From assembly GCA_964373795.1 (NCBI GenBank), contig CAYJVY010000001.1, positions 99,837 to 163,836 on the forward strand: 64,000 nt of DNA, in the 5' to 3' direction. This document shows positions 6,084-63,916 of the stretch, one piece after another. The position numbers were made by a program, and so were the translations under genes. This DNA comes from an uncultured archaeon. Lineage in GTDB: Archaea > Iainarchaeota > Iainarchaeia > Iainarchaeales > DATDZZ01. The notes under the pieces are model-generated. The model was not told the DNA's origin. It saw only the letters and a program-made list of their open reading frames with translations, and did no database searches. The stretch's first letter is position 1, and the number at the start of each line of letters is the position of its first letter.

Positions 6084-7298
6084 GTGAAAGAATTCTCCAA
6101 TCTTTCCGATGCAGATGTCAATTTGCTTTCTTCTTTCAAACCATTAGAATTTGAAGTTGCGAACAGAATGATTGAAAATGTTGTAGGAGTAATGCCTTTT
6201 CCTCTAGGAATTGCAACCAATTTTTTAATCAATGGAAAGGATTACTTAATTCCAATGGCTTTAGAAGAAGCCTCTGTTGTTGCAGCTGCTTCTCATTCAG
6301 CAAAGCTTGCACGCGAAAAAGGAGGATTTACTGCTTCTTCAACTGATCCAATAATGATTGGACAAATTCAGTTATTGAATGTTCCAAACCTATCTAAAGC
6401 AAAAAACGCAATTGAGTCTGCGAAAAAAGAAATTTTGGAATTCTGTAATTCAATTGATTCAGTGTTAGTGAAATTTGGAGGAGGAGCAAAGGATTTCACT
6501 TTACGAGAAATTCCCTTTTCTAAAGGAAAAATGCTTGTCTTTCACTTGCTTGTAGATGTTCGAGATGCAATGGGTGCAAATGCTGTTAACACAATGTGTG
6601 AAAAGCTTTCTCCGCGTTTAGAACAGCTTTCAGGAGGAGAAACTCGTTTAAGAATTTTATCAAATCTAGCAATTTATCGTTTAACTAAAGCAAAAGCTAT
6701 TTGGAGTAAAAAAATTTTAACAGAGCAATTCGGTGAACAAGCAGTTGACAGAATTTTAGATGCATTTGAATTTGCTGTAAACGATCAATTTCGTGCAACA
6801 ACTCATAACAAAGGAATAATGAATGGAATTGATGCAGTAGTAATTGCTACAGGAAATGACTTCAGAGCAGTTGAAGCTGGAGCACATTCCTATGCTGCTT
6901 TTGAGCATAATTATTCTTCTCTAACAAAATATTACAAAAATTCTGATGGAGACTTGGTTGGAGAAATTGAATTACCTTTAGCAATTGGTTTAATTGGTGG
7001 AGCAACTAAAGTGCATCCAATGGCTCAAGTTTCATTAAAAATTTTGGGAGTAAAAACAGCTAATGAATTAAGTCAAGTAATTGCTTCTGTTGGCCTTGCG
7101 CAAAACTTTGCTGCAATGCGTGCATTGGCAATTGAAGGAATTCAGCAAGGCCATATGAAGCTTCATTCCAGAAACCTTGCTTCAATGGCTGGAGCAAAAG
7201 GAAATCAAATAGATTTAATTGCAGCTCAAATGGTGAAAGAAAAAAACGTTTCATTTTCCAGGGCAAAAGAATTAATTGAAGGATTGCAAAAACACTAA
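6084..7298 (+). CDS. hmgA: Hydroxymethylglutaryl-CoA reductase (class I, archaeal-type)
   Basis: 404 aa with motifs EASVVAAASHSAKLAR, DAMGANAVN and GTVGG-like region. GTG start as called by the ORF track; no in-frame ATG upstream. Confidence 0.85.
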   Translation: MKEFSNLSDADVNLLSSFKPLEFEVANRMIENVVGVMPFPLGIATNFLINGKDYLIPMALEEASVVAAASHSAKLAREKGGFTASSTDPIMIGQIQLLNVPNLSKAKNAIESAKKEILEFCNSIDSVLVKFGGGAKDFTLREIPFSKGKMLVFHLLVDVRDAMGANAVNTMCEKLSPRLEQLSGGETRLRILSNLAIYRLTKAKAIWSKKILTEQFGEQAVDRILDAFEFAVNDQFRATTHNKGIMNGIDAVVIATGNDFRAVEAGAHSYAAFEHNYSSLTKYYKNSDGDLVGEIELPLAIGLIGGATKVHPMAQVSLKILGVKTANELSQVIASVGLAQNFAAMRALAIEGIQQGHMKLHSRNLASMAGAKGNQIDLIAAQMVKEKNVSFSRAKELIEGLQKH

Positions 7299-8694: not shown

Positions 8695-9852
8695 ATGAAA
8701 GTAGCAGTTGTTGGAACTGGTTTAACTCAATTTGGAGAGTTATGGAATAAAGGCATTAAAGATTTGCTTGCTGAAGCTCAGTTAAAAGCTTTAGAGGATG
8801 CAAAAATGTCTGGAAAAGATATTCAAATGATATATACAGGTAACATGGTTTCAGGAGAATTAACTGGTCAAGAACATTTAGGAGCAATGGCTTCAGAGAA
8901 TTTAGGATTAAATATTCCTTCAACTCGAATTGAAGGAGCATGTGCTTCAGGTAGCTTAGCAATTCGAGAAGGAGTTTTTGCAATTCTTTCAGGGCAAGCA
9001 GATATTGTAATGGTTAATGGAGTAGAAAAAATGACTGATTGTTCTGTTGAACAAGTTACAACTGCTTTAATGGGTGCAGGTGATGAAGAATGGGAGGAAT
9101 TTCAAGGAGCAACTTTTCCAGGGCTTTATGCTTTATTTGCGAGAAGAATGTTTCATGAAAAATTAATTACTCGCGAACAACTTGCAATGGTTTCAGTTAA
9201 ATCTCACAAGCATGGAACCTTAAACCCTATTGCTCAATTCAAAAAAGAAATCACTGTAGACGATGTATTAAAGTCTTCAATGGTTGCAGATCCTTTAACC
9301 TTGCTTGATTGTTCTCCAATCTCTGACGGAGCTGCTTCAATTATTCTTGCAAAACCAGAACTAGCAAAAAAATTCACTGATTCGCCTGTTTACTTAATTG
9401 GTTCAGGGCAAGCAACTGATACTCTTGCATTGCATGCAAGAGATTCTTTAACTGAAATTAAAGGCACTCGAATAGCTGCTCAGCATGCTTTCAAGCAAGC
9501 AGGAATTTCAGTAAAAGATATTTCTATTACTGAAGTGCATGACTGTTTTTCTATTGCAGAGGTTTTAGCAATGGAGGGCATTGGCTTAACAAAGCCTGGA
9601 GAAACAGGGAAAGTAATTGAAGAAGGTCAAACATTTTTTGATGCAAAAATTCCAGTGAACACTTGTGGTGGATTAAAAGCTTGTGGGCACCCAATCGGAG
9701 CTACAGGAGTAAAACAAGCAATTGAAGTGGTTCATCAATTAAGAGGCGATGCAGGAAAAAGGCAAGTAAAAAATGCTTCAATTGGCATAACACATAATGT
9801 TGGAGGTACTGGAGCAACAGTAGTAGTAAATGTGTTTTCAAATAAAAGGTGA
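8695..9852 (+). CDS. Acetoacetyl-CoA thiolase (archaeal thiolase)
   Basis: 385 aa. MKVAVVGTGLTQFGELW N-terminus, catalytic Cys region EGACASGSLA, C-terminal CGGLKACGHPIGATG. Confidence 0.85.
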   Translation: MKVAVVGTGLTQFGELWNKGIKDLLAEAQLKALEDAKMSGKDIQMIYTGNMVSGELTGQEHLGAMASENLGLNIPSTRIEGACASGSLAIREGVFAILSGQADIVMVNGVEKMTDCSVEQVTTALMGAGDEEWEEFQGATFPGLYALFARRMFHEKLITREQLAMVSVKSHKHGTLNPIAQFKKEITVDDVLKSSMVADPLTLLDCSPISDGAASIILAKPELAKKFTDSPVYLIGSGQATDTLALHARDSLTEIKGTRIAAQHAFKQAGISVKDISITEVHDCFSIAEVLAMEGIGLTKPGETGKVIEEGQTFFDAKIPVNTCGGLKACGHPIGATGVKQAIEVVHQLRGDAGKRQVKNASIGITHNVGGTGATVVVNVFSNKR

Positions 9853-20762: not shown

Positions 20763-21911
20763 ATGAAGGAATTAACTGTTTCTGCTCCAGGAAAACTAAT
20801 GCTTTCAGGAGAATGGAGTGTTCTTGAGCTAGGAGTTCCTTGTGTTGTAATGGCTATTGATAAAAGAGTTTACGCGAAAATTCATTCAACCTCAGATAAT
20901 AAAATTGTTTTAAATGCTCTAGACGTTGGTTTAAGCAATATCTCTGGATACTTTGATTTAAGTTCAAAAAAACTTTTATTTGAAAAAGAATTATCCAAAG
21001 AAGAATTAGATAAAGTTGTGTTCATTAAAAATGCTATTGAATTAAGTTTGGCTTTTTTGCAAGACAAAAAAGTTTCATTGAAAGGATTTTCATTAGAAAC
21101 TAAAAGTGATGATGCTCAAGTAAAACTTGAAGATGGCTCTGTAAAAAAAATTGGTTTTGGAAGCTCTGCGGCTGTATGCGTTGCAGTTTCAGGAGCTGTG
21201 TTTGCTTTACATGAACAAGAATTTAATTCTTATTCGTCTAAAGAAATTATTTTCAAGATTTCAGCTTTGGCTCATTTCACTGCTCAAGGAAAACTTGGAA
21301 GCTCTTTTGATATAGCTGCTTCTTCTTTTGGAGGAGTTCTTTTATATAAAAAATTTGACCCAGAATGGGTTGTAACTGAATTTAACAAAGGCAAACCAGT
21401 GCATGAATTAATGCTTGAAAAATGGCCTTATTTAGAAATTCGTTCTTTAAAGCTTCCAACAGATTTCAATTTATGTGTTGGTTGGACTAAGTCTAGTGCT
21501 TCAACTAAAGAATTAGTTTCAAAAGTGAACGAGTTTAAAAAAAATAATAAAGATAATTACATGCAAATAATAAAAAAAATTGAAGGTGTTACTTCAAAAT
21601 TAATTTCAGAACTTGAATCAAGCAATAAATTAACTGTTTTACAGTTATTACGCGAAAACAGGAAATACTTAAAAGAATTCAGTGATTTAACTCAAAACAA
21701 TTTAGAAACCCCTGAATTAAAGACTTTAGCTGATACAGCTGACTTGCTTGGAGCTGCAGGAAAGTTTTCCGGAGCAGGAGGAGGAGACTGCGGAATTGCA
21801 GTAACATTTTCAAACGAAGCAGCGCACAAAATTCAAAACGCTTGGAAAGAAAAAGGCTTATATCCATTAAACGTAAAAATAGCACAGCAAGGTTTGAGGT
21901 TGGAACACTAA
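20763..21911 (+). CDS. Phosphomevalonate kinase-like GHMP kinase (ERG8-type)
   Basis: VSAPGKLMLSGEWSVLE N-terminus resembles ERG8-type PMK rather than MVK. GHMP P-loop region GFGSSAAV. 382 aa. Confidence 0.6.
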   Translation: MKELTVSAPGKLMLSGEWSVLELGVPCVVMAIDKRVYAKIHSTSDNKIVLNALDVGLSNISGYFDLSSKKLLFEKELSKEELDKVVFIKNAIELSLAFLQDKKVSLKGFSLETKSDDAQVKLEDGSVKKIGFGSSAAVCVAVSGAVFALHEQEFNSYSSKEIIFKISALAHFTAQGKLGSSFDIAASSFGGVLLYKKFDPEWVVTEFNKGKPVHELMLEKWPYLEIRSLKLPTDFNLCVGWTKSSASTKELVSKVNEFKKNNKDNYMQIIKKIEGVTSKLISELESSNKLTVLQLLRENRKYLKEFSDLTQNNLETPELKTLADTADLLGAAGKFSGAGGGDCGIAVTFSNEAAHKIQNAWKEKGLYPLNVKIAQQGLRLEH

Positions 21912-26432: not shown

Positions 26433-26789
26433 ATGGTTTTAGAAGTCAAGACAAGGCTTTTTCCTTACAGGCTAGTTTTAAATAGAAAAAAACCAGTTGA
26501 ATTAAAGATTGATTTAACTAATGCCTCTGACAAAAAAGCTTTGGCTTCACTAGAATTATCTTTGCCTAGAAGCCTTTCATTAGATAAATCAGGATTAAAG
26601 GGATCTGAATTACTTAGATTAGGAGAATTGTCTCCAAATGAATCCAAAACCTTTTACTTTGAAATTTATCCTAAAGCAATAATTGAAGGAAAAGAACACT
26701 TAATTAGATTAAAAGCTACAGAGCATCACTTAGATTACAACTACATTGCAAAAGAAGTTGAAAGAACTTTAACCCTACTTGTAGACTAA
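26433..26789 (+). CDS. Hypothetical protein
   Basis: 118-aa ORF, no motif. Confidence 0.35.
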   Translation: MVLEVKTRLFPYRLVLNRKKPVELKIDLTNASDKKALASLELSLPRSLSLDKSGLKGSELLRLGELSPNESKTFYFEIYPKAIIEGKEHLIRLKATEHHLDYNYIAKEVERTLTLLVD

Positions 26790-26977
26790 ATTCGCCGAGC
26801 ACGTGGCGAGCGTGAACGGTTGGCGAGGATGAGTACTTATGCAGGCATGTGTTAATGCGAATTGCTTGGCTGAAATTTGAAAAAGAAAAATAAAAAACAT
26901 TGCAAAGTAAGTGCTTTGCAAAAAGAAATAAAATTAGATTATTAAAAAAAGAAAAAACAAAAGGAGTTTTTATCCTT

Positions 26978-31200: not shown

Positions 31201-31854
31201 ATGAATGAATTAAAGCGAATAGAGAAATACATAAAAAAATATTCTCTTGGATTAATTGAAAGAAAAACCTCTTTAAAGCACTATAATGAATTGCTTGAAA
31301 AAATTGAGGAAGGCCTTTCATTTGAGTCACTGATTTCAGATTTTTTGGAAAAAAAACCGCTTGTTAGAGTGTTTGAAATTGGTTGTGGAGAAGCTCAAGC
31401 TTTAAAGGAATTAAAAGTAATTTTTAAAAACAAAGTTTTTGTTTCAGGAATTGATTTACTTGAAACGGATTTTCAGAACTTGGATGAATTAATTATTGGC
31501 GATGTATTAGAGCAAGTTTTTCCTCAAAACTGTGACATAATTTTTTCATTTAAATCTTTGCACGAAATCGGTTCAACTAAACAACTAATTGAAAAAATTG
31601 AATCCTCTTTAACAAATGGAGGAGTAGCAATTCTTTCCATTCGCGTACAAGAATTCAAGCAAGGCGAATTAGTTTTCCTTGGAGAGTTAACTCAAGAAGA
31701 CTTGGATTTTTTGAATTCAATTCTGCAAGCAGAAAAATTTAAGTCTTGCCTAGTTTCTGGAAGCAAGGTTTTCTTAGAATATAATGGAGTTCAATTTCTT
31801 GCAGGCATTAATTTAATTTTAATGAAGCAAGTGCAGTTCAGCCGGCGAGGCTGA
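31201..31854 (+). CDS. Class I SAM-dependent methyltransferase
   Basis: Motif I VFEIGCGEAQAL. The last about 6 codons run into the GC-rich island. Confidence 0.5.
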   Translation: MNELKRIEKYIKKYSLGLIERKTSLKHYNELLEKIEEGLSFESLISDFLEKKPLVRVFEIGCGEAQALKELKVIFKNKVFVSGIDLLETDFQNLDELIIGDVLEQVFPQNCDIIFSFKSLHEIGSTKQLIEKIESSLTNGGVAILSIRVQEFKQGELVFLGELTQEDLDFLNSILQAEKFKSCLVSGSKVFLEYNGVQFLAGINLILMKQVQFSRRG

Positions 31855-32100
31855 GTGCCCACGTGGGCATCGCGCTTGCCGCGCGAGACGGCAGCTGAAG
31901 GGTCACGTGACCCCTCGTGCTCGACGCACGAGACGTCGCAGCCGGCGAGGCTGAAGCTAAAGCCAATGAAGCTGAGCCAAGTGGTGGGTGTGAGTCAACA
32001 GTCAGCGGAGCTGAGGCAGGCGGCGAACATGAAGCCAGTGAGGTTGACTCGTGTTCATTGTGTGCAACCGCAGTTGAGTGCCTTCGAATCATTTTGGTTA
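31838..32100. ncRNA. GC-rich structured-RNA candidate, possibly SRP (7S) RNA. Strand undetermined.
   Basis: About 60% GC island in a roughly 30% GC genome. Palindromic hairpins gcccACGTgggc, gggtcACGTgaccc, cgtgcTCGACgcacg. 17-nt direct repeat gcagccggcgaggctga x2. ORFs on both strands encode Ala/Ser/Pro-rich nonsense. No RNase P CR-I motif and no tRNA T-loop/stem found. Confidence 0.4.
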
Positions 32101-32199
32101 GTCGCGTTATTTTCTGAGTTAATCTCCATTAAAATGAAATAACTTCATAATCCCTTTCTTTTAGTATCAAAAGGTTTATTAACACTAAAATAAAGAATA

Positions 32200-33135
32200 A
32201 TGTTGGATTTGACTATTATGTGTTTTAAGGCAAAGATATTATTTGTTTTATTTTTAATATTGTTTTGTAATACTTTTTTTGCAGAACCTACAAAGGTAAA
32301 AGTTGGAAGCTATATTTTGAATGTTGGAAATTTTGATCCTGCTTTAGGAACTTATGATTTGTCCTTCTATGTTTGGGTCAAATGGGATAAGGACATTAAT
32401 GGCTTTACTGCTGAAAATTTTGAATTAATGAATGCAAAAAATATGTCGCTTGAACTAATTGAAGAACTTCCCGGCTACAAATTTTATAGTGGTCAGGGGA
32501 CTTTTTTCCAAAAAATTGATATGGCAAATTTTCCTTTTGATTCGCATGAAATTTCACTTGAATTAGAAGACAAATTATATGATGTAACCAAGTTAGTTTA
32601 TGTTCCTGACACTAATTGGCTTTCCTCAGAGAACCCAGATATTGCAGTACTTGGATGGAAAAATAATGGCGCAAAAATAGAGTTTGTTGAAAGATATTAT
32701 GACACTTGGAACACTACATATTCAAGGTATATTCACAAAATCAATGTCTCAAGGCCTTTAATTGATTCACTAAAAGTTTTTCTGCCAATAATTTTTCTTT
32801 CATTGTTGGGATTTTTTACATTTCTTATAAACATTCGAAAATTTTCAGAAAGACTTTCAATGTCAGTTTTTACTTTCATGGCTGCTATTGCCTATCAAAT
32901 ACAAGTGAATGTAACAATTCCTCCATTGGGGTTTTTCACGATTGCAGACAAGGCAATGATTGCAATTTATGCAGGCCTTTTGTTTGCAACGATTTACACA
33001 ATTTATATACAATGGTATGAGGAGAAAAACAAAGAGGCAGTCGCTAGTAGGACAAACAAATTCGTGATATCATTTTATTTCATTTTCCAGCTGTTAGTAT
33101 TCTTAGTAATATTTGTTTTGGATTATCTATTTTGA
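32200..33135 (+). CDS. Pentameric ligand-gated ion channel (pLGIC, GLIC/ELIC-like)
   Basis: Signal peptide, about 200-aa beta-rich extracellular domain with YVWVKWDKD (W-x-D) and Cys-loop-equivalent FPFD motif, then four TM helices. The M1 Pro (FLPIIF) and an M2 pore helix ERLSMSVFTFMAAIAYQIQVNVTIP align with GLIC M2. Confidence 0.7.
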   Translation: MLDLTIMCFKAKILFVLFLILFCNTFFAEPTKVKVGSYILNVGNFDPALGTYDLSFYVWVKWDKDINGFTAENFELMNAKNMSLELIEELPGYKFYSGQGTFFQKIDMANFPFDSHEISLELEDKLYDVTKLVYVPDTNWLSSENPDIAVLGWKNNGAKIEFVERYYDTWNTTYSRYIHKINVSRPLIDSLKVFLPIIFLSLLGFFTFLINIRKFSERLSMSVFTFMAAIAYQIQVNVTIPPLGFFTIADKAMIAIYAGLLFATIYTIYIQWYEEKNKEAVASRTNKFVISFYFIFQLLVFLVIFVLDYLF

Positions 33136-33313: not shown

Positions 33314-34831
33314 TTGAAGATTGTTACTTTAAATCCGCCTTTTTTTGAAAAGTTTTCCAAGGATTCTAGGAGTCCAGGTGTATCAAAAGGAGGCTGTGTT
33401 TATTATCCTATTTGGCTTGGATATTGCACTGGATTACTTGAAAAGCAAGGACATGAAGTGAAATTAATTGATTCCCCTGCTGAAGGAATGAATTTAGAAA
33501 AATGTTTGCAAATTGTTAAAGAATTTAATCCTAGAATGATTGTAGTGCAAACAGTTACTGCAAGTTTTAATAATGACATAATGGTTGTAGAAGAATTAAA
33601 GAAAATCTTGCCAAATGTTTTCATTGCATTAGTTGGAGATCATACTAGTGCAGTGCCAATTGAGTCTCTTAAAGCAAGTAAATTTGTTGACTGTGTAACA
33701 ATTCAAGAATTTGATTTCACTGTAAGAGATATTGCAATTGCTTTAGAGCAAGGAAAAGATATCTCTACTGTTAGAGGAATTGTTTATAGAAAAATTAATT
33801 CAGATGTATTAGAAGAATTCAAGTTTACTTTGCCTCGCGAATTAATTTCAGGCCAAGACTTAGATGAATTTCCATTTGTTTCAGATGTTTATAAAAGACA
33901 TTTAACAATTGAAAACTATTTTTATCCTTCAGTGTTATATCCTGAAGTAACAATTATTACTGGCCGTGGATGCAAATACAGATGTACGTTTTGTAAATGG
34001 CCGCAGACTTTGACAATGCATGAATATAGAGCTAGGTCAGTGAAAAATGTGGTAGATGAATTTGAATGGATTGAAAAAAATTTGCCTCAAGTAAAAGACA
34101 TTATGATTGAAGATGATACTTTAACTCAAGACAAGACTAGAACAATTGAGTTATGTAAAGAAGTTGTTGCAAGAGGGTTGAAAATTCCTTGGACTTGTAA
34201 TTCCAGAGCAGACATTGATTTAGAGACAATGGAGTGGATGAAGAAAGCTAATTGTAGATTAATGTGTGTTGGATTTGAATCAGCTGATCAACAAATTTTA
34301 AACAATATTAAGAAGGGAACAATGATTCCAAAAATAAAGCAATTTGTTGTAGATGCAAAAAAAGCAGGAATATTAATTCATGGGTGTTTCATGCTTGGAA
34401 ATAAAGGTGAAACAAAGGAAACAATTAAGAAAACAGTTGCAATGGCTAAAGAATTAGATCCTGATACAGCTCAATTTTTTCCAATAATGGTTTATCCTGG
34501 AACAGAGGCATATAAATGGGCTGAAGAAAATAATTTCCTGAAAACAAAGGATTGGAGTAAATGGTTATTGCCTGATGGAACTCACAATTCAATTGTTTCA
34601 ACAGACAAATTAACTTCAGAAGAACTAGTAAGAGAATGCGATAAAGCAAGAATTGCATTTTATTTAAGGCCTGCATTTATTTTCAGAAAATTAAATCAAG
34701 TAATAAAAAATCCTTTAAAAGAATTCCCTAGATTTGTTATTTCAACTTGGATTTTCTCTAAGTACTTGGCAAAAGAAGTAAAAGAAACCATTTTTCCAAC
34801 TCCTTCCAGCAAAACAACTCTTTCAGCTTAA
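33314..34831 (+). CDS. B12-binding-domain radical SAM protein
   Basis: N-terminal Rossmann-like B12-binding region, radical SAM C-x3-C-x2-C in ITGRGCKYRCTFCKW. 505 aa. Confidence 0.7.
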   Translation: MKIVTLNPPFFEKFSKDSRSPGVSKGGCVYYPIWLGYCTGLLEKQGHEVKLIDSPAEGMNLEKCLQIVKEFNPRMIVVQTVTASFNNDIMVVEELKKILPNVFIALVGDHTSAVPIESLKASKFVDCVTIQEFDFTVRDIAIALEQGKDISTVRGIVYRKINSDVLEEFKFTLPRELISGQDLDEFPFVSDVYKRHLTIENYFYPSVLYPEVTIITGRGCKYRCTFCKWPQTLTMHEYRARSVKNVVDEFEWIEKNLPQVKDIMIEDDTLTQDKTRTIELCKEVVARGLKIPWTCNSRADIDLETMEWMKKANCRLMCVGFESADQQILNNIKKGTMIPKIKQFVVDAKKAGILIHGCFMLGNKGETKETIKKTVAMAKELDPDTAQFFPIMVYPGTEAYKWAEENNFLKTKDWSKWLLPDGTHNSIVSTDKLTSEELVRECDKARIAFYLRPAFIFRKLNQVIKNPLKEFPRFVISTWIFSKYLAKEVKETIFPTPSSKTTLSA

Positions 34832-39088: not shown

Positions 39089-40330
39089 TAAATCGCCTAA
39101 TAATATTATTCTTAATTTAGTATGTCAATTACCCACCATTGAAATGGTTGGCTTGTCGTTAAGCTCTGCTTCAATTCTGTTTCCAGTTTCAGCTTCATCA
39201 CTTACAACATTTGGCTTATTGACTAAAGCCTGCACAAAAAGAGATTTACCCCCTCTGACAATATTTCGAGAAGCATTCAAATCAGAATGCAACTCAAAAA
39301 CACATTCTTTACATTTGAACACACTTTCATGCCTATTATTTTTATCAACATATCCGCATTTAGAACATTCCTGACTTGTATACTTAGGATTAACCAAAAC
39401 AACTGATTTACCCAATCTCTCAACTTTATATTCAATGAAACTTCTAAGTTGAGCAAAACTCCAATTACCAATCATTTTTCTAGTTTTTCTACCAGTTCTG
39501 GAATTCCTAACATTTTTCAAGTCTTCTAAAGCAAATACATTGAAAGGCAATTCAACAATTTGCTTGCTAATTAAATGATTTACATTTCGCACAAAACGGT
39601 TCTCTTTTCCACTAACTTTTTGTAGTTTTCTTTTAGCGGATTTAGTGCCTTTGCTTTGCAAATCACTTTTCAACTTCTGATATTTACCTTTAATATTTCT
39701 CAAACTTCGAGAATTAAAAAAAGAATTATTTGACAAAGTAACAATATTTTTTATACCACTATCAATGTCAAGAGTTTCAAAACCTTCAACTTTAGGAATT
39801 TTATCATTCAACATTTGTAAATGCAAAAAATAGTTTTGTCTTTTCTTTACAAGTTGGGCATTTGAGTATTTCCACTCAGAATATTTTTTGAAATAATTAG
39901 CCATTATGAAAGGAATTTTTTGTCTACCAAACAAAGTGCTTATAGAAATTATACCTTTGTCAAACATTATTGAAAGGTTTCTTTTGTCAAATCTTATTCC
40001 AGAAAACTCTTTTTTAATAGGTTTTTGTTTTAATTTCAATTTTTTGAGCATATCACTTGCTTGATCACGGGAAGTTTGAAGTAAAGAAGATTGTATGCGT
40101 GGATATTTTTTTCTAAGTAAATTGTAAGTTCTTTTATGTAGTTTGTTTTTGTTAAAAGTATGGTTTTCATATCCAAAATTAATTATTTCTTGACAAGTTT
40201 TGTTAAATGTGGACATAGTTGATTCTAATTCCTTCACAACACCAAGTTTTATTATTACAGTCCTAATATCTTTATTAATCATACAATATTATTATTACTT
40301 CTTACTTATAAAAGTTTAGACTTATTTCAA
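39000..40330 (-). mobile_element. IS200/IS605-family element remnant carrying tnpB only (IS1341-like). Boundaries approximate.
   Basis: TnpB ORF with no adjacent Y1 TnpA. Ends not delimitable by eye. Confidence 0.4.
39125..40282 (-). CDS. tnpB: TnpB (OrfB) RuvC-like RNA-guided nuclease of IS200/IS605 family
   Basis: RuvC-I LDIDSGIKNIV, RuvC-II LEDLKNV, Zn finger CSKCGYVDKNNRHESVFKCKECVFELHSDLNASRNI. 385 aa. Confidence 0.8.
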   Translation of the reverse strand: MINKDIRTVIIKLGVVKELESTMSTFNKTCQEIINFGYENHTFNKNKLHKRTYNLLRKKYPRIQSSLLQTSRDQASDMLKKLKLKQKPIKKEFSGIRFDKRNLSIMFDKGIISISTLFGRQKIPFIMANYFKKYSEWKYSNAQLVKKRQNYFLHLQMLNDKIPKVEGFETLDIDSGIKNIVTLSNNSFFNSRSLRNIKGKYQKLKSDLQSKGTKSAKRKLQKVSGKENRFVRNVNHLISKQIVELPFNVFALEDLKNVRNSRTGRKTRKMIGNWSFAQLRSFIEYKVERLGKSVVLVNPKYTSQECSKCGYVDKNNRHESVFKCKECVFELHSDLNASRNIVRGGKSLFVQALVNKPNVVSDEAETGNRIEAELNDKPTISMVGN

Positions 40331-55662: not shown

Positions 55663-58600
55663 ATGGATTATATAAAGCAAATAAAGGACACTATTTTGGA
55701 ATCGCTTCCAAAAGAAGCACTAGTTACTACAGTTGATTTAGAGGGCCCAGAAATAGCTATTTATACTAAAAACCCTAAAATGTTTTTTGAAAACCAAAAC
55801 CTAGTAGCAAAAGCAGCATTTGATTTAAAGAAAAGAATTAACATTAGAACAGATAAAAGTCTTTTAACTGAAGAAAACAAAGCAGAAAAAACAATTAGAG
55901 AAATTGTTCCACAAGACGCAGACATTAGAGACATTTCATTCAATCCAGCTTTTTCAGAAGTAGTAATTGAAGCAATTAAGCCAGGACTAGTAATTGGAAA
56001 AGGCGGAGAAACATCCAAGCAAATTATTTTAGAAACAGGTTGGACTCCAAACATTATTAGAGCTCCTACTTCTCCTTCAAAGATTTTGAAAGGCTTGCGA
56101 AACCATTTACATAAATATTCTAGTGAAAGAAAAAAAATTTTGCAAGACATTGCAAGAAAAATTTATGCTGAACGATCCGAAAACGCTAAGAATTGGATTA
56201 GATTACATGCTTTAGGTGCTTTCAGAGAAGTTGGAAGAAGCTGTGTATTTGTTGAAACCCCTTATACAAAGGTTTTACTTGATTGTGGAGTAAATGTTGC
56301 AAACAACGCAGAACCATATCCTTATTTAGATGCTTTAAATTTTTCAGTTGACAGATTAGATGCAGTAATAATTTCTCATGCTCATTTAGATCATTCTGGA
56401 ATGCTTCCATATCTTTTCAGACTAGGTTATAGAGGCCCGGTTTATTTAACAAAGCCTTCAAGAGACTTAATGTGTTTACTTCAATTTGATTATATTGATG
56501 TATTAGTTAAAGAAGGAAAAGAACCTCCTTACACTGAACAAGACATTAAAGAAATGATTAAGTACTGCATTACTCGTGAATACAGGGAAGTAACAGATAT
56601 TGCTCCAGACATGCGTTTAACTTTTCACAATGCCTCTCATATTCTTGGCTCGAGTTCAGTTCACTTGCATATAGGAAATGGTCAACACAATTTAGTTTAC
56701 TCTGGAGACATTAAATTTGGTTTTACTCGTTTATTTAATGATCTTGATTTAAATTTTCCAAGAATTGAAACACTAATAATTGAATCAACTTATGGATCTA
56801 AAATGGATCTTCATCCTAAAAGAATGGATGCAGAAAAAAACTTAATTCAAGTAATTAAGGAAACAATTCAAACAGGTGGAAATGTTTTAATTCCAGTTTT
56901 CGCTGTTGGAAGAGCTCAAGAAATAATGCTTGTATTAGAAGAAGGCTATAAAAGAGGAGAACTAGATGGAATAAATGTTTACGTTGATGGAATGACTAAA
57001 GAAGCTTCAGCAGTTCACACTGCTTATCCTGAATACTTGAGAAGCAAAGTTCAAAGAAGAATTCTTCAAAACGATTCGCCTTTTACTTCAGAAATATTTA
57101 AAGAAGCAACTTGGGATCAAAGAGATGAAATTCTTGCAAAAGGTTCAGCAGTAATTCTTGCTTCTTCTGGAATGCTTACAGGAGGAGCTTCACTTGATTA
57201 CTTAACTAAAATGTCTTCAGATCCAAACAATACAATAGTGTTTGTTGGATTTCAAGGACAAGGATCAACTGGAAGAAAAATTCAATCAGGAATTAAAAGC
57301 TTTCCAATTACAGCTGAAAACAGTAAAACAAAAGAATTAGTAATCAATATGCGAGTTGAAACAATTGAAGGATTTTCAGTTCCATATGAAACAGATGTAA
57401 TGATTAAAAGAAATAATTTGTTTGAATTAATTGAAATTGGAAAACTAGCAGATGAATTTCTGCCAAAAACCTCTGAAGGTTTAGTGGAGTTAAAAAGAAT
57501 TCAAGTTCCTGCATTTGATTTCAACGGAAAAATTTCTTGGCATGCTGTAAGCCATTTATTGAAGCATAAAAGTAAAGACAATCACTTGCTTTTTAAAACA
57601 AAATCTGGAAAAGAAATCCAAGTATCTAAAGGGCATAGCCTGTTTTGCTTTAAAAATAAGGCAATTCAAGCCTTGCCTGCAAACAAATTAACTACTGGCT
57701 CTCACATTGTAATTCCAAATAAATTGCCTGAATCTCACTCAATTCATTCAATTCAATTCCAAGAATTTGTTGACAATAAAAATTATGTTTTAAACGAAGA
57801 GCTTAACAAATTTGAACCAATGAAAGGTGGAAACAAAAAATCCTTTTTAATTTCTGAATGCAAGGATATGAAAAAACTTGCAAGGTTTTTAGGATATTAT
57901 ATTTCTGAAGGAAACATTGAAAAAGGAAAAGGCAATAGAGCAATTTTAAGCTTTGGAGCACATGAAAAAAACTTAATTGAAGATGCAATTGATTGCAGTA
58001 AAACTTGTTTTGGAATAACTCCAACCATTCATAAGCCTCACAAAACCGAAACACAGCTAAGGATCCATAATAAAATGTTGGTTGAATTTTTGGAACAAAT
58101 TGGTTGTGGTGAAAGAGGTTCAAGCAAAAGAGTTCCAAAAATTGTTTTAAATTTTTCAATTGAAGTTCAAAAAGAATTCTTGAAAGCATATTTTGAAGGC
58201 GATGGTTATATATACAAGAATGGAGGAAAAGGTTATCTGGCTGCAAAATCCATTAGCAAGAAACTTGTTTCAGATCTTTCCTATCTTCTTTTACAACACG
58301 GAATTGTTCCAAGAATTAAAGGTCCAATAAAAGAAAAAGCAAGGGAATTGAATGGTAATTTCTTGAAAGAATCAATTATTTTCAAAATATATTTGTCTGA
58401 AAAAGACTTTACAAAAATTCAAAGAAATATTGGCATTGCTCCGTTTGCATTGCCTTTAATTGAAATTAATTTGAGGAGCTGGTATACTGCAATATCTAAT
58501 CCAAAACTAAGAAAATTAGCTAATGCTTACATTAACGCTCTTGAAAAAAAAGGAAGAAGCTATATTGGATTACATGTTTTGAGACAGTTTTTGAATGCCT

Positions 58601-58974
58601 TAAATGAATCAAAGTTGAATAAAAAAACTCTTGAATTAATTTCAACACTAAAATGCTTATCTTTAAACGACATTTTAGTTGACGTGATTACAGAAATAAA
58701 AGAAGTTTCTTCAGGAGAATTTGAATACGACTTTGTTGTTCCAGGCAAAGAAAATTTTGTTGGAGGTTTTGGTGGAATAATGCTTCACAATTCAGGGCAC
58801 AGTGACAGATCAGAATTAACTAATTATATTCGCACTCTAAAAATTAAACCTAAAAGAGTAATAGTTGACCACGGAGAAAAATCTAAAGCAATTGAATTCG
58901 CGAAATTCATTACAGCTAAATTCAAAATCAATTCCACTGCATTACAAAACCTTGATGCAATAAGGTTAGAGTAA
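55663..58974 (+). CDS. aCPSF1 (KH + metallo-beta-lactamase + beta-CASP ribonuclease) interrupted by an intein
   Basis: Two N-terminal KH domains, MBL HAHLDHSG, beta-CASP. The extein is 631 aa, against about 635 expected. The intein is inserted inside the GF|SGHSD His-motif C. Confidence 0.8.
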   Translation: MDYIKQIKDTILESLPKEALVTTVDLEGPEIAIYTKNPKMFFENQNLVAKAAFDLKKRINIRTDKSLLTEENKAEKTIREIVPQDADIRDISFNPAFSEVVIEAIKPGLVIGKGGETSKQIILETGWTPNIIRAPTSPSKILKGLRNHLHKYSSERKKILQDIARKIYAERSENAKNWIRLHALGAFREVGRSCVFVETPYTKVLLDCGVNVANNAEPYPYLDALNFSVDRLDAVIISHAHLDHSGMLPYLFRLGYRGPVYLTKPSRDLMCLLQFDYIDVLVKEGKEPPYTEQDIKEMIKYCITREYREVTDIAPDMRLTFHNASHILGSSSVHLHIGNGQHNLVYSGDIKFGFTRLFNDLDLNFPRIETLIIESTYGSKMDLHPKRMDAEKNLIQVIKETIQTGGNVLIPVFAVGRAQEIMLVLEEGYKRGELDGINVYVDGMTKEASAVHTAYPEYLRSKVQRRILQNDSPFTSEIFKEATWDQRDEILAKGSAVILASSGMLTGGASLDYLTKMSSDPNNTIVFVGFQGQGSTGRKIQSGIKSFPITAENSKTKELVINMRVETIEGFSVPYETDVMIKRNNLFELIEIGKLADEFLPKTSEGLVELKRIQVPAFDFNGKISWHAVSHLLKHKSKDNHLLFKTKSGKEIQVSKGHSLFCFKNKAIQALPANKLTTGSHIVIPNKLPESHSIHSIQFQEFVDNKNYVLNEELNKFEPMKGGNKKSFLISECKDMKKLARFLGYYISEGNIEKGKGNRAILSFGAHEKNLIEDAIDCSKTCFGITPTIHKPHKTETQLRIHNKMLVEFLEQIGCGERGSSKRVPKIVLNFSIEVQKEFLKAYFEGDGYIYKNGGKGYLAAKSISKKLVSDLSYLLLQHGIVPRIKGPIKEKARELNGNFLKESIIFKIYLSEKDFTKIQRNIGIAPFALPLIEINLRSWYTAISNPKLRKLANAYINALEKKGRSYIGLHVLRQFLNALNESKLNKKTLELISTLKCLSLNDILVDVITEIKEVSSGEFEYDFVVPGKENFVGGFGGIMLHNSGHSDRSELTNYIRTLKIKPKRVIVDHGEKSKAIEFAKFITAKFKINSTALQNLDAIRLE
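57376..58791 (+). other. Intein (472 aa) with LAGLIDADG homing endonuclease inside aCPSF1
   Basis: Block A SVPYETDVM (Ser1), C-terminal block G VGGFGGIMLHN followed by extein +1 Ser. LAGLIDADG motifs FLGYYISEGN and FLKAYFEGDGYIY. Confidence 0.7.
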
Positions 58975-60678: not shown

Positions 60679-60918
60679 ATGATTTTGACTCTAGAATCTC
60701 TTTTAGAACATGTTTTGGTTCCGAAACACGAAGTAGTTCCAAGAACTCAAGTTCAAGAAGTATTAGAAAAATATGGAATTACTTTGGAAAAACTTGCTTT
60801 AATTTCTGTTGATGATCCAATTGTAACTGAATTGCAAGCAGATAAAGGAGATTTAATTAAAGTTACTCGTTTTAGTCATACTGCTGGGGAAAGCATTTAT
60901 TTTAGATTAGTTGGTTAA
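60679..60918 (+). CDS. rpoH: DNA-directed RNA polymerase subunit H (Rpb5 homolog)
   Basis: 79 aa. HVLVPKHEVV...KGDLIKVTRFSHTAGESIYFR is the conserved Rpb5 C-domain. Confidence 0.8.
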   Translation: MILTLESLLEHVLVPKHEVVPRTQVQEVLEKYGITLEKLALISVDDPIVTELQADKGDLIKVTRFSHTAGESIYFRLVG

Positions 60919-63916
60919 AGGAGAGATTGAATTGAATAACTTGGAATTAATTGATGCTTATTATAGAAGTAAAAAAATTTCTAAAATGGAAATTGATTCT
61001 TTTAATCAATTCTTGGATTTAAAATTAAATGAAATAGTTGATGAAAATAAATTTGTTTCTCCTAAAATGGAGGAAGTAAGAATAGAGTTATCAAAAATAG
61101 AGGTTTTAAAGCCAAGAATAATTGAAGCAGATGGTTCTCCTAGATCAAACTTTTTTCCAATGGAGGCTCGTTTAAGAAACAGAACTTATGCTTCCCCGAT
61201 TTTTTTAACAATGACTTTGCTTAGAAGAGATGTAGAACAAGACGTAAAAAAAGCTTATATTGGGGATCTTCCAGTAATGCTTAAATCAAATCGTTGTTGG
61301 CTTGAAGGAAAATCAGATGAAGAATTAGTTGAAATGGGTGAAGATCCATTAGATTTTGGTGGATACTTTATTATTAATGGATCTGAAAAAGCTTTAATGA
61401 CTCAAGAAGTTTTGGCTTCAGATAGAGTAATGATTGCTGAATCATCTCAAGAGAAAACAATTTCTGAAGTGATTTCAACTCGAGGAGCATTTAAGGGAAG
61501 GACAAGAGTAATTCGTTCTCCAGACGGAACATTAAATGTTACTTTTCCTGCTTCTCCAAAAAAATTAAACTTATATGTTTTATTAAAAGCTTTAGGAATG
61601 AAGTCAACTAATCAAATAACTGATGCTTTTAGTGACTTAAAAGAAATTAGAAACGATGTATTAATTAATTTTGAAAATCTTGACGTTAAAGATGAAGAAG
61701 AAGCATTAGATAAAATTGGAAAATATGTTGCTCCAGGACAAGTAATTGATTATAGATTGAAAAGAGCTCAAGAAGTAGTAGACGCATTTTTATTGCCTCA
61801 TATTGGGCAAAACCCTGAAGACAGATTAGCTAAAGCATACTTTTTATGCATGATGGCTGAAAAAGCAATTGAAAAAGCTAATGGTTTAAGAGGCGAAGAC
61901 GATAAAGATCATTATGCTAATAAAAGAGTTGAATTAAGTGGAAAATTAATGGAGCACTTATTTAGATATGCATTCAAATATTTTATCAAGGACTTGAAAT
62001 TCCAAATTGACAGAACTATTACTCGTAGAAGAAAACTAAACATTTCAACTGTTGTTCGCCCAGGAGCTGTAACTGAAAGAATTCGTTTTGCAATGTCTAC
62101 TGGAAACTGGATTGGCAGAGCAACAGGAGTAAGCAAATTCATGGACAGAGTTAATTACATTGCTCCTTTAACTGATTTAAGAAAAGTTAAATCTCCTTTA
62201 GATAAAAGTCGAGAATTATATGAAGCAAGAGATGTTCATGGAACTCATTGGGGTAGACTTGATTGCATTGAAACTCCTGATGGGCCTCAATGCGTTTCTC
62301 CTGAAACTGAAATGCTTTTAGATGATTATACTGCAATTCAAATAAAAGATTTTGAAGAAATTTGGAGAAACAAAAAAATTTCTTCAATTGATTGGAATAA
62401 AGAAGATAAAAGTGAAGTTAAATCCAGTATTGCTAGATTCATTAAGTTAACTCCAAATAAAAAGGTTTTCAAGATTAAAACTAAGGAAACTGGAAGAGAA
62501 TTAATTGCTACAATTGATCATCCTTTTTACTCTGAATTGAAAGGAAAAACAGATTTAAGCAATTTGCATGAAGGAGAAAGAGTTGCTGTTTTGCCAATTA
62601 AAGCACTTAAATTTGAAAAACCTGTAAAAGAATTAATTTTATCAGAGCAAGACATTATTAATGCATGTCCAGAAAAATCTGATCAAGAACACATTTTAAA
62701 TGAATTAAAATCAAAAAACTTAATTCCGTTTTATTCAGATAATGAAAACATTTTAATTGCTTCAAAAATTTTAGGCCATTTATTTGGAGATGGAAGCTTA
62801 ACTCTTTCAATGAAAAAATTTAAATCCAATTATGCAATTGTTTTTTCTGGAAACAAAGGAGATCTTGAAGACATTTCATTAGATGTTAAAAAACTTGGCT
62901 TTAATGCTTCAAAAATTTCTCAATTAAAAAGAAAATCTATTTTAACTAATGGAAGAATAATTGAAGGAACATCTACTTTAATGCATTGTTATTCAAAGCC
63001 TTTATGGGTTTTCTTTAAAGCTTTGGGAGCGCCAAATGGGGACAAAGTTTTAACAGAATATTCAATTCCTGCATGGATTAAAAATCAAAGAAAAATTGTA
63101 GTAAAAGAATTTTTATCTGCATATTTTGGAAGCGAAATGACTAAACCGCAAGTAGATAAAAGAGATGAAAAAATATTTTTACAGCCAACGTTTTCATTGA
63201 ATAAATCAAAGGACTTGGTTTTAAGTGGAATTAAATTCACTGAAGAATTAAAGGAACTTCTTTCATTATTTGATGTGAACATTTCTAAAACAAAAATTGT
63301 TGACTGTATTCAAAGAAAATCAGGTATTGAAACAAGAAAAATTAAAGTGTTATTTTCTTCCAAGATAGATTCTTTGCTTAATTTGTTTGGATTAATTGGA
63401 TTCAATTATTGTAGAGAAAGAAATAGTTTGGCAAGACTTGCATTTGAATATCTTTTAACTAAAAAAACTTTAATTGAAAAAAGAACTTTATTACAACAAT
63501 CAACAATTAATTTGTCTAATAAAGGCTTTAATGAACAACAAATTTTAAGTGAATTAAAACAAGGCCTGCGATTACATGATGTACTTAATTGGGTTAAAAA
63601 ATCTAAACAAGGAGATGAAATTTCTCCAAGAGTTTCAGAAATTGATTTCCCTAAATTTGATGAATGGATTAGAAGTCATGCGATTTCCGAAAATGGTTTG
63701 TGTTGGGAAACAATTGAATCAATTCAAGAAACAAATTGCAGCGAAGTAATGGATGTAACAACTTTGCAAGATTATCACAATTTTTTTGCAAATGGTTTTT
63801 TAACAGGAAATTGTGGGCTAGTAAAAAATCTGTGTTTATTGGCAGAGGTTACAACAGAGTCAAGTCAAGAACCAGTTGAAAAATTATTGAATGAAATGGG
63901 AGTGAAACTTAAATGA
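60911..63916 (+). CDS. rpoB2: DNA-directed RNA polymerase subunit B'' (N-terminal half of split RpoB) interrupted by an intein
   Basis: 494-aa extein with THWGRLDCIETPDGPQ | CGLVKNLCLLAEV (Rpb2 CGLVKNL motif). A 507-aa insertion sits between Q460 and C+1. Confidence 0.8.
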   Translation: MVKGEIELNNLELIDAYYRSKKISKMEIDSFNQFLDLKLNEIVDENKFVSPKMEEVRIELSKIEVLKPRIIEADGSPRSNFFPMEARLRNRTYASPIFLTMTLLRRDVEQDVKKAYIGDLPVMLKSNRCWLEGKSDEELVEMGEDPLDFGGYFIINGSEKALMTQEVLASDRVMIAESSQEKTISEVISTRGAFKGRTRVIRSPDGTLNVTFPASPKKLNLYVLLKALGMKSTNQITDAFSDLKEIRNDVLINFENLDVKDEEEALDKIGKYVAPGQVIDYRLKRAQEVVDAFLLPHIGQNPEDRLAKAYFLCMMAEKAIEKANGLRGEDDKDHYANKRVELSGKLMEHLFRYAFKYFIKDLKFQIDRTITRRRKLNISTVVRPGAVTERIRFAMSTGNWIGRATGVSKFMDRVNYIAPLTDLRKVKSPLDKSRELYEARDVHGTHWGRLDCIETPDGPQCVSPETEMLLDDYTAIQIKDFEEIWRNKKISSIDWNKEDKSEVKSSIARFIKLTPNKKVFKIKTKETGRELIATIDHPFYSELKGKTDLSNLHEGERVAVLPIKALKFEKPVKELILSEQDIINACPEKSDQEHILNELKSKNLIPFYSDNENILIASKILGHLFGDGSLTLSMKKFKSNYAIVFSGNKGDLEDISLDVKKLGFNASKISQLKRKSILTNGRIIEGTSTLMHCYSKPLWVFFKALGAPNGDKVLTEYSIPAWIKNQRKIVVKEFLSAYFGSEMTKPQVDKRDEKIFLQPTFSLNKSKDLVLSGIKFTEELKELLSLFDVNISKTKIVDCIQRKSGIETRKIKVLFSSKIDSLLNLFGLIGFNYCRERNSLARLAFEYLLTKKTLIEKRTLLQQSTINLSNKGFNEQQILSELKQGLRLHDVLNWVKKSKQGDEISPRVSEIDFPKFDEWIRSHAISENGLCWETIESIQETNCSEVMDVTTLQDYHNFFANGFLTGNCGLVKNLCLLAEVTTESSQEPVEKLLNEMGVKLK
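62291..63811 (+). other. Intein (507 aa) with LAGLIDADG endonuclease inside rpoB''
   Basis: Block A CVSPETEMLL. LAGLIDADG motif 1 ILGHLFGDGSL, motif 2 diverged (FLSAYFGSEM). C-terminus ANGFLTGN followed by Cys+1, with the penultimate His replaced by Gly. Confidence 0.65.

Follow-up and report, generated by a model that had tools for sequence, protein, structure and literature searches.

We analysed a 64,000-nucleotide stretch of DNA from an uncultured archaeon (contig CAYJVY010000001.1, positions 99,837 to 163,836 of the forward strand; hereafter the window), in which one gene very probably encodes a subunit of a pLGIC (pentameric ligand-gated ion channel) of the prokaryotic, Cys-less "Pro-loop" type. 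We put the probability of this reading, together with the mechanism proposed below, at roughly 0.85. An earlier sequence-only reading of the same DNA had described the open reading frame (ORF) as a GLIC/ELIC-type pLGIC in an archaeon. The ORF list contains it exactly where that reading had placed it on the plus strand (Table 1), and it codes for 311 amino acids (aa), its range including the stop codon. The core of the description is supported by four independent lines of evidence (single-sequence searches, family profile, predicted fold, and signature residues) and by the archaeal marker genes of the window. The find is correct but fairly ordinary, a divergent further member of the known archaeal pLGICs. 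As archaeal pLGICs were already described in 2005 and 2016, the interest first attached to it was too high.

Sequence and fold similarity to pLGICs

The similarity of the encoded protein to pLGICs in sequence, profile, and predicted fold is far beyond chance. A phmmer search of the PDB sequences returned ELIC and GLIC at E~1e-7 over residues 72-306, the NCBIfam models LGIC_1 and LIC picked up the protein at E=1e-14 and E=3e-6, respectively, and a family profile made from the query and 60 relatives (61 sequences) matched full-length GLIC with an E-value of 2.5e-39 (138 bits). An AlphaFold2 model of the monomer, built on the family alignment, reached a pLDDT of 95.8 and a pTM of 0.84 and consists of a signal helix, a beta-sandwich, and four helices, which follow the extracellular domain. 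When this model was compared with the PDB by Foldseek, GLIC came first (E=8e-21, TM-score 0.76-0.78 over 305-308 aligned columns), followed by the glycine receptor (GlyR), the GABA-A receptor, and ELIC.

The protein belongs to a large family of compact prokaryotic pLGICs of ~300 aa. At E<=1e-3, an exhaustive profile search over 1.8 billion cluster representatives gave 3303 relatives, 99 of them at E<=1e-30. Within this family, its clade is small and divergent, and the three sequences known to belong to it all come from archaeal genomes assembled from metagenomes. One is the database copy of the window protein (P0001, 100% identical), and beyond it the search found only two orthologues, P0002 (67% identity) and P0003 (58% identity).

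The signature and pocket residues were mapped on a 153-sequence alignment that includes GLIC and ELIC. All seven of the most conserved residues of the superfamily, as listed by Jaiteh et al. (2016, Table 1; PMC4795631), are present: F111, P112, D114, the beta9 Trp (W153), the pre-M1 Arg (R185), the kink Pro of M1 (P196), and the M2-M3 Pro (P241). The last four align to GLIC W160, R192, P204, and P247, and the Arg at 0' (R218) is present as well. The FPFD motif, proposed earlier as the equivalent of the Cys-loop, is indeed there: F111-P112-F113-D114 aligns to GLIC Y119-P120-F121-D122 and fits the [F/Y]-P-x-D of the beta6-beta7 loop tip, with P112 invariant in 151/151 family members and D114 found in 130/151. 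The disulfide-forming Cys pair that flanks this loop in eukaryotic Cys-loop receptors is absent, since the protein lacks Cys altogether between residues 24 and 311, and this is therefore a Cys-less, prokaryotic-type Pro-loop receptor. The residues that couple the extracellular and transmembrane parts are intact (the D114-R185 salt bridge, D46, and P241).

The architecture is largely the one that had been described from the sequence. The N-terminus has the make-up of a signal peptide, with a K-rich n-region and a hydrophobic core (ILFVLFLILFC), and ends in ...FFA before EP. The Kyte-Doolittle hydropathy window spans residues 1-31, the model has a helix at 3-22 with lower pLDDT, and the junction between A and (E/Q)P is kept in the orthologues. 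A pre-M1 Pro follows the pre-M1 Arg (R185-P186), and the four predicted membrane helices include an M3-M4 linker of only ~3 residues (K276-K278). Two points had to be amended. The extracellular domain is a beta-sandwich, as claimed, with model strands between residues 31 and 184, but it measures ~157 aa and not ~200, compared with 179 in GLIC and 190 in ELIC; relative to these two, the whole family lacks ~20 residues after beta2, among them the WxP loop-A segment. The W-x-D motif is in fact W62-D63-K64-D65, which is offset from GLIC W47-K48-D49, and its Trp is not conserved in the family, where Cys occupies the position in 70/151. In the compact prokaryotic pLGICs, a Cys...Cys pair after beta2 (query W62/I66) occurs in 70 and 64 of the 151 sequences, respectively, and is likely a disulfide pair.

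Predicted pore, ligand, and gating

The M2 helix had been said to align closely with that of GLIC. The alignment is gap-free, but the identity is only 8/26, and it is also 8/26 to ELIC. The predicted pore positions are S216 (-2'), E217 (-1'), R218 (0'), S220 (2'), F224 (6'), M227 (9'), A231 (13'), I234 (16'), V238 (20'), and P241 (23'), so that the charged ring at -1' (E217) and the TIP at the end of the helix (T239-I240-P241) are where the sequence-only reading had seen them. The pre-M2 "FSERL" is identical to that of ELIC and not to that of GLIC, and the anion-type Pro-Ala-Arg (P-A-R) motif is absent. Given what is established about charge-selectivity motifs, our best guess is that the channel is cation-selective, because its S-E-R equals that of ELIC and no Pro-Ala-Arg is found.

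ELIC, the amine-gated cation channel of Erwinia/Dickeya chrysanthemi (PDB 2VL0, 3RQW), resembles the query in other respects too. The two share fold and topology, Glu at -1' and Arg at 0', a short linker between M3 and M4, and the lack of Cys-loop cysteines, and they have equally many residues from -1' up to the Pro between M2 and M3. Pan et al. (2012; PMC3316889) list the residues of ELIC that contact the ligand or act in the relay, and by these the likeness may extend to the pocket: ELIC E77, E131, E129, Y38, Y175, F188, and R190 correspond to query E75, E123, E121, Y57, Y167, Y174, and R176, and ELIC F19 and L178 correspond to Y38 and W170; M77 is a further query position in this mapping. 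In this alignment at 21% identity, eight of the nine pocket and relay positions keep their residue or have a conservative substitute, the exception being F133 (K125 here), and the SER is identical. The mapped pocket residues are invariant in the three orthologues except for M77 (Thr in P0003), and most are conserved among the 151 relatives, e.g., E123 in 136/151 and Y167 in 134/151. There are also clear differences. The two proteins are 21% identical (59/278), the extracellular domain of the query is 33 aa shorter and has no WxP loop-A segment, the loop-B F133 is Lys, and in the pore, 6' is Phe instead of the Thr of ELIC and 16' is Ile instead of Phe. Finally, the host of the query is archaeal.

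The mechanism that we favour starts with cleavage of the signal peptide, which would leave the 157-aa beta-sandwich outside and the four helices across the membrane. Five identical copies would then form a homopentamer around a central pore lined by M2; within the 64-kb window, the gene is single-copy and has no paralogue nearby. What binds at the subunit interface would be a small ligand with a positive charge, a primary amine or similar organic cation being likeliest, and E75, E123, and an aromatic cage of Y38, Y57, Y167, W170, and Y174 might hold it there as in ELIC. The signal would be relayed to M2 through the salt bridge between D114 in the Pro-loop and R185 before M1 and through E121/E123/R176, and the cation-selective pore, with its E217 ring at -1' and ELIC-like "S-E-R", would open. 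Such a channel could serve in the sensing of environmental or host-derived chemicals. A small cationic or amine ligand is favoured over protons with modest confidence, because the pocket mapping rests on 21% identity.

Several observations weigh against this reading as a whole or against parts of it. The hmmscan check that the sequence-only reading had suggested proved a weaker test than expected: in Pfam, Neur_chan_LBD (PF02931) scored 16.8 bits for the query against a gathering score of 26, and Neur_chan_memb (PF02932) had no match to it, although 30 and 29 of the 61 aligned relatives, respectively, match these models at E<0.01. Passing the gathering scores is a matter of annotation and not of biology, and the profile, PDB, and fold comparisons, which took the place of this check, are decisive. 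The two NCBIfam models likewise show detectable similarity, yet their scores lie far under the curated cut-offs (NF033918, LGIC_1: E=1e-14, 54.5 bits vs 500; TIGR00860, LIC: E=3e-6, 26.1 bits vs 280). The low identity behind the pocket mapping and the Lys at the place of the loop-B Phe count against an ELIC-like ligand site, and across the three carrier genomes, no conserved gene neighbourhood hints at a ligand. In the pore, position 9' is Met and 6' is an unusual Phe (F224), and a ring of five Phe could narrow or block it. Furthermore, the clade has lost residues that are conserved in the family (D55 to S, the 15' His to Q233, H165 to R, and the Cys pair at 62/66), and its gating may differ from that of the rest of the family. 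Over the 151 family members, His is found at M2 15' in 114 and in beta9 (query R165) in 89.

Gating by protons, as in the cation channel GLIC of Gloeobacter violaceus (PDB 3EAM), rather than by a small molecule is unlikely. GLIC is both the best profile match and the best structural match; like the query, it has no N-terminal helix, a loop C of equal length, a four-helix transmembrane domain, and a minimal M3-M4 linker, and the titratable residues H116, H179, E121, and E123 are conserved in the clade. However, the identity to GLIC is 17%, the ~20 residues after beta2 are deleted in the query, and the acidic ring is at -1' in the query and at -2' in GLIC. Moreover, the proton sensors of GLIC, which we take to be E26, E35, H235 (11'), and E243, are replaced by N41, G50 (Gly in 99/151 relatives), A229, and N237, and a cage of aromatic and acidic residues like that of ELIC appears to be retained.

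It is very unlikely that the protein has the pLGIC fold but does not conduct, or conducts very differently, with Phe 6' and Met 9' plugging the pore of what would be a receptor, a scaffold, or a protein losing its function. Such a view would fit the restriction of Phe at 6' to the three orthologues (3/151), with S/A/T/G in 140/151 relatives and Trp in one neighbour, and it would also fit the other losses of conserved residues in the clade. On the other hand, the three orthologues, whose genomes range from 31 to 57% GC, share F224 and almost all of residues 228-247, from the C-terminal half of M2 to the start of M3, without variation. This points to strong purifying selection and argues for function, not decay. 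All coupling and signature residues are intact. Phe at 6' is also found naturally in the beta subunit of the glycine receptor, in heteromeric channels that function, and a ring of Phe at 16' does not keep ELIC from conducting.

The same residues allow a more speculative idea, to which we give little credence: the three orthologues could represent a lineage of pLGICs, associated with DPANN, whose pore and sensor have been remodelled and in which the five-Phe ring at 6', Met at 9', and the losses of Asp55, the 15' His, His165, and the Cys pair make up a new variant of gating or permeation, possibly one by which an episymbiont senses amines or other cations from its host.

Distribution and origin of the gene

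Both orthologues lie on archaeal contigs, which carry genes for thermosome, deoxyhypusine synthase, geranylgeranyl reductase, and NFACT. The contig of P0002 is 180 kb long and has 57% GC in the region of the gene; P0003, from "archaeon isolate H43-bin240_1", lies in a region of 40% GC. A search of loci with the three-sequence alignment returned one orthologue (that of archaeon H43-bin240_1) and distant bacterial relatives. As the scores of the query fall far short of every curated cut-off, automated annotation has left the one orthologue with a source name as "hypothetical protein". The next relatives are ~30% identical and, where named, belong to Aenigmatarchaeota, Nitrosocaldus, Thaumarchaeota, and Methanoperedens; the wider family includes bacteria (Myxococcales, Gamma- and Deltaproteobacteria, Methylococcaceae).

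The host itself is an archaeon. The window contains genes for PolD DP1/DP2, FttA/aCPSF1, and RpoB as archaeal markers, and HMG-CoA reductase is also present. A Diapherotrites-like DPANN archaeon is the likely host, since the best named relatives of DP2, the large subunit of PolD, belong to Candidatus Diapherotrites/Iainarchaeum (up to 68% identity). For the same reason, the reduced genome assumed in the sequence-only reading is plausible.

A phylogeny had been suggested as a check for horizontal transfer, and neighbour-joining with 60 bootstraps answered it in part. The three-sequence clade was recovered in 60/60 replicates, but the sister group was not settled, P0004 with P0015 appearing there in 15/60. 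The suggested comparison of genomic context gave a negative result, as the neighbourhoods of the three genomes have nothing in common. We consider a recent acquisition from bacteria, in place of a resident archaeal gene, improbable: the differing neighbourhoods, the bacterial members of the family, the unsettled sister group, and a GC content at third codon positions of 27%, the highest of the 26 ORFs in the window (others 15-25%), would fit it, but the GC content of the gene equals that of the genome (31%), the only close homologues (58-67%) are on archaeal contigs, the best-scoring named relatives outside the clade are all archaeal, and the clade has full support. Nothing suggests that the gene was recently received from a donor of different composition.

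Three observations concern the surroundings of related channel genes. On the P0002 contig (L005; 9194-12276, 16088-17570), the channel gene lies between, and in the same direction as, genes for the iron transporter VIT1 and an amino-acid permease of the APC family; the gaps are 66 and 50 nt, and the arrangement is seen only there among the three genomes. Genes for a pyruvoyl arginine decarboxylase and an agmatinase follow ~5-6.6 kb downstream. These neighbours hint, though weakly and in a single genome, at a context of amino acids or amines. A TnpB gene (L022 7650-8816) directly adjoins that of P0005, the closest outgroup channel; the context of P0005 (copper ATPase, TnpB) was considered as a taxonomic clue and is not diagnostic.

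That pLGICs are sporadic in archaea, as had been remarked, agrees with Jaiteh et al. (2016; PMC4795631), who found them in Euryarchaeota and a Thaumarchaeota clade. That paper cites Tasneem et al. (2005) for members in Methanosarcina. The published archaeal pLGICs are likewise Cys-less Pro-loop receptors of patchy distribution, and proteins from Nitrosocaldus and Thaumarchaeota are among the best-scoring named relatives of the query at ~30% identity. The present clade differs in being of DPANN type and in its specific F6', Q15', and S55. The literature searched held no paper linking pLGICs to DPANN, and going by title and abstract, none of the papers from 2017 or later with both "archaeal" and "pLGIC" was about an archaeal member.

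Implications

The current picture is unchanged, as archaeal pLGICs and their patchy distribution had been described. What is gained is that a conserved protein, labelled hypothetical where its source is named, can be re-annotated as an ion channel, and that pLGICs are extended to DPANN archaea, with likely Diapherotrites here and Aenigmatarchaeota among the nearest relatives. In the minimal genomes of DPANN archaea, any sensory channel that is retained likely matters for the lifestyle. The protein also draws attention to a large family of compact, ~300-aa prokaryotic pLGICs that often fall below the Pfam thresholds. With its very small extracellular domain and Phe-6' pore, it could serve as a minimal model for structural work.

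Gene structure and start codon

The features of the gene are listed in Table 1. M7 (32218) is the likelier biological start, rather than M1, because the database copy begins there (305 aa) and both orthologues align from M7 onward; the choice does not affect the mature protein. The A/T-rich sequence upstream points the same way. There, aaagg-TTTATTAA at 32170-32182 and AAAATAAAG at 32187-32195 form a candidate archaeal B recognition element (BRE)/TATA box, which would set the start of the transcript at ~32204-32218. This TATA-like stretch at 32175-32195 would therefore favour M7, with transcription expected to begin at or just before it. The orthologous genes are likewise preceded by A/T-rich boxes, 15-40 nt upstream.

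Table 1 Features of the putative channel gene and its upstream region (positions in the window)
Feature	Position	Strand	Basis
A/T-rich promoter-like stretch	32175..32199	+	direct reading of the sequence
Probable pLGIC (Pro-loop receptor) subunit gene	32200..33135	+	ORF list, ELIC/GLIC matches, fold match
Predicted N-terminal signal peptide, aa 1-28	32200..32283	+	hydropathy, model helix 3-22, orthologue alignment
Compact extracellular beta-sandwich, aa 29-185	32284..32754	+	model strands 31-184, alignment, pocket mapping
Putative pocket residues Y38, Y57, E75, E121, E123, Y167, W170, Y174, R176	within 32284..32754	+	ELIC mapping
Pro-loop signature F111-P112-F113-D114	32530..32541	+	alignment; defining motif per Jaiteh 2016 Table 1
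Pre-M1 Arg R185 and M1 helix, aa 187-209, with kink Pro P196	32752..32826	+	model, alignment
M2 pore helix, aa 215-239, and M2-M3 Pro P241	32842..32922	+	gap-free GLIC/ELIC alignment, model
M3 helix, aa 248-275, including family-invariant D250	32941..33024	+	model, family alignment
M4 helix, aa 279-310	33034..33129	+	model

Neighbouring sequences

Next to the channel gene, the sequence-only reading had noted a structured-RNA island. The GC-rich island upstream of the gene is real (31838-32095; ~56% GC against 31% for the genome) and the only strongly GC-rich one in the 64 kb, but an RNA was not confirmed: when the island was searched against Rfam, nothing reached the gathering threshold or came within E<=10 apart from a 22.6-bit match to chrB-a, and with a z-score of only -1.26 for either strand, the folding energy is not exceptional. 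The island overlaps the stop codon of the upstream methyltransferase ORF and lies between the methyltransferase gene and, one gene further, that of a B12-binding radical S-adenosylmethionine (SAM) protein. It holds five degenerate direct-repeat copies of a ~20-nt unit (GCAGCCGGCGAGGCTGAAGC) and a 66-codon ORF (31917-32117, +) with GNN/three-base periodicity and three Cys near its C-terminus. Pfam gave no match for the three ORFs of the island, no plasmid matched it, and when metagenomes were scanned with its doubled 14-mer, all that turned up were chance hits to tandem repeats of high GC. Candidates for its identity are an RNA gene, a gene for a small peptide (perhaps of the ribosomally synthesized and post-translationally modified type), and a foreign fragment. 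A link between the island and the channel was considered and rejected, because the island is absent upstream of the orthologous channel genes. A weaker GC-rich patch without an Rfam match lies at 26754-26879, in an ORF-poor gap. In the 64 kb as a whole, no Rfam family reached the gathering score, and ARAGORN found no tRNA gene.

The neighbours of the channel gene in the window encode Pol IV, the methyltransferase, an HpnJ-like B12 radical-SAM enzyme, an (R)-SAM hydrolase, and a K+/H+ antiporter, and none of them suggests a ligand. The B12 radical-SAM gene is directly downstream (33314-34831, +). Its closest model is the hopanoid-associated HpnJ (TIGR03471; 419 bits against a cut-off of 578), which is unexpected for an archaeon. 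A TnpB gene of the IS605 OrfB type, with a Cas12f-like TNB domain, is found ~6 kb downstream of the channel (39125-40282, -). Two of the archaeal marker genes contain inteins: that of the transcription-termination factor FttA/aCPSF1 (55663-58974, +), with a LAGLIDADG endonuclease domain, and that of RNA polymerase subunit B (60911-63916, +), with an intein splicing domain. Finally, at 6084-7298, 8695-9852, and 20763-21911, the window encodes HMG-CoA reductase, a thiolase, and a GHMP (mevalonate-type) kinase, which suggests that this DPANN-like genome retains the mevalonate pathway at least in part.

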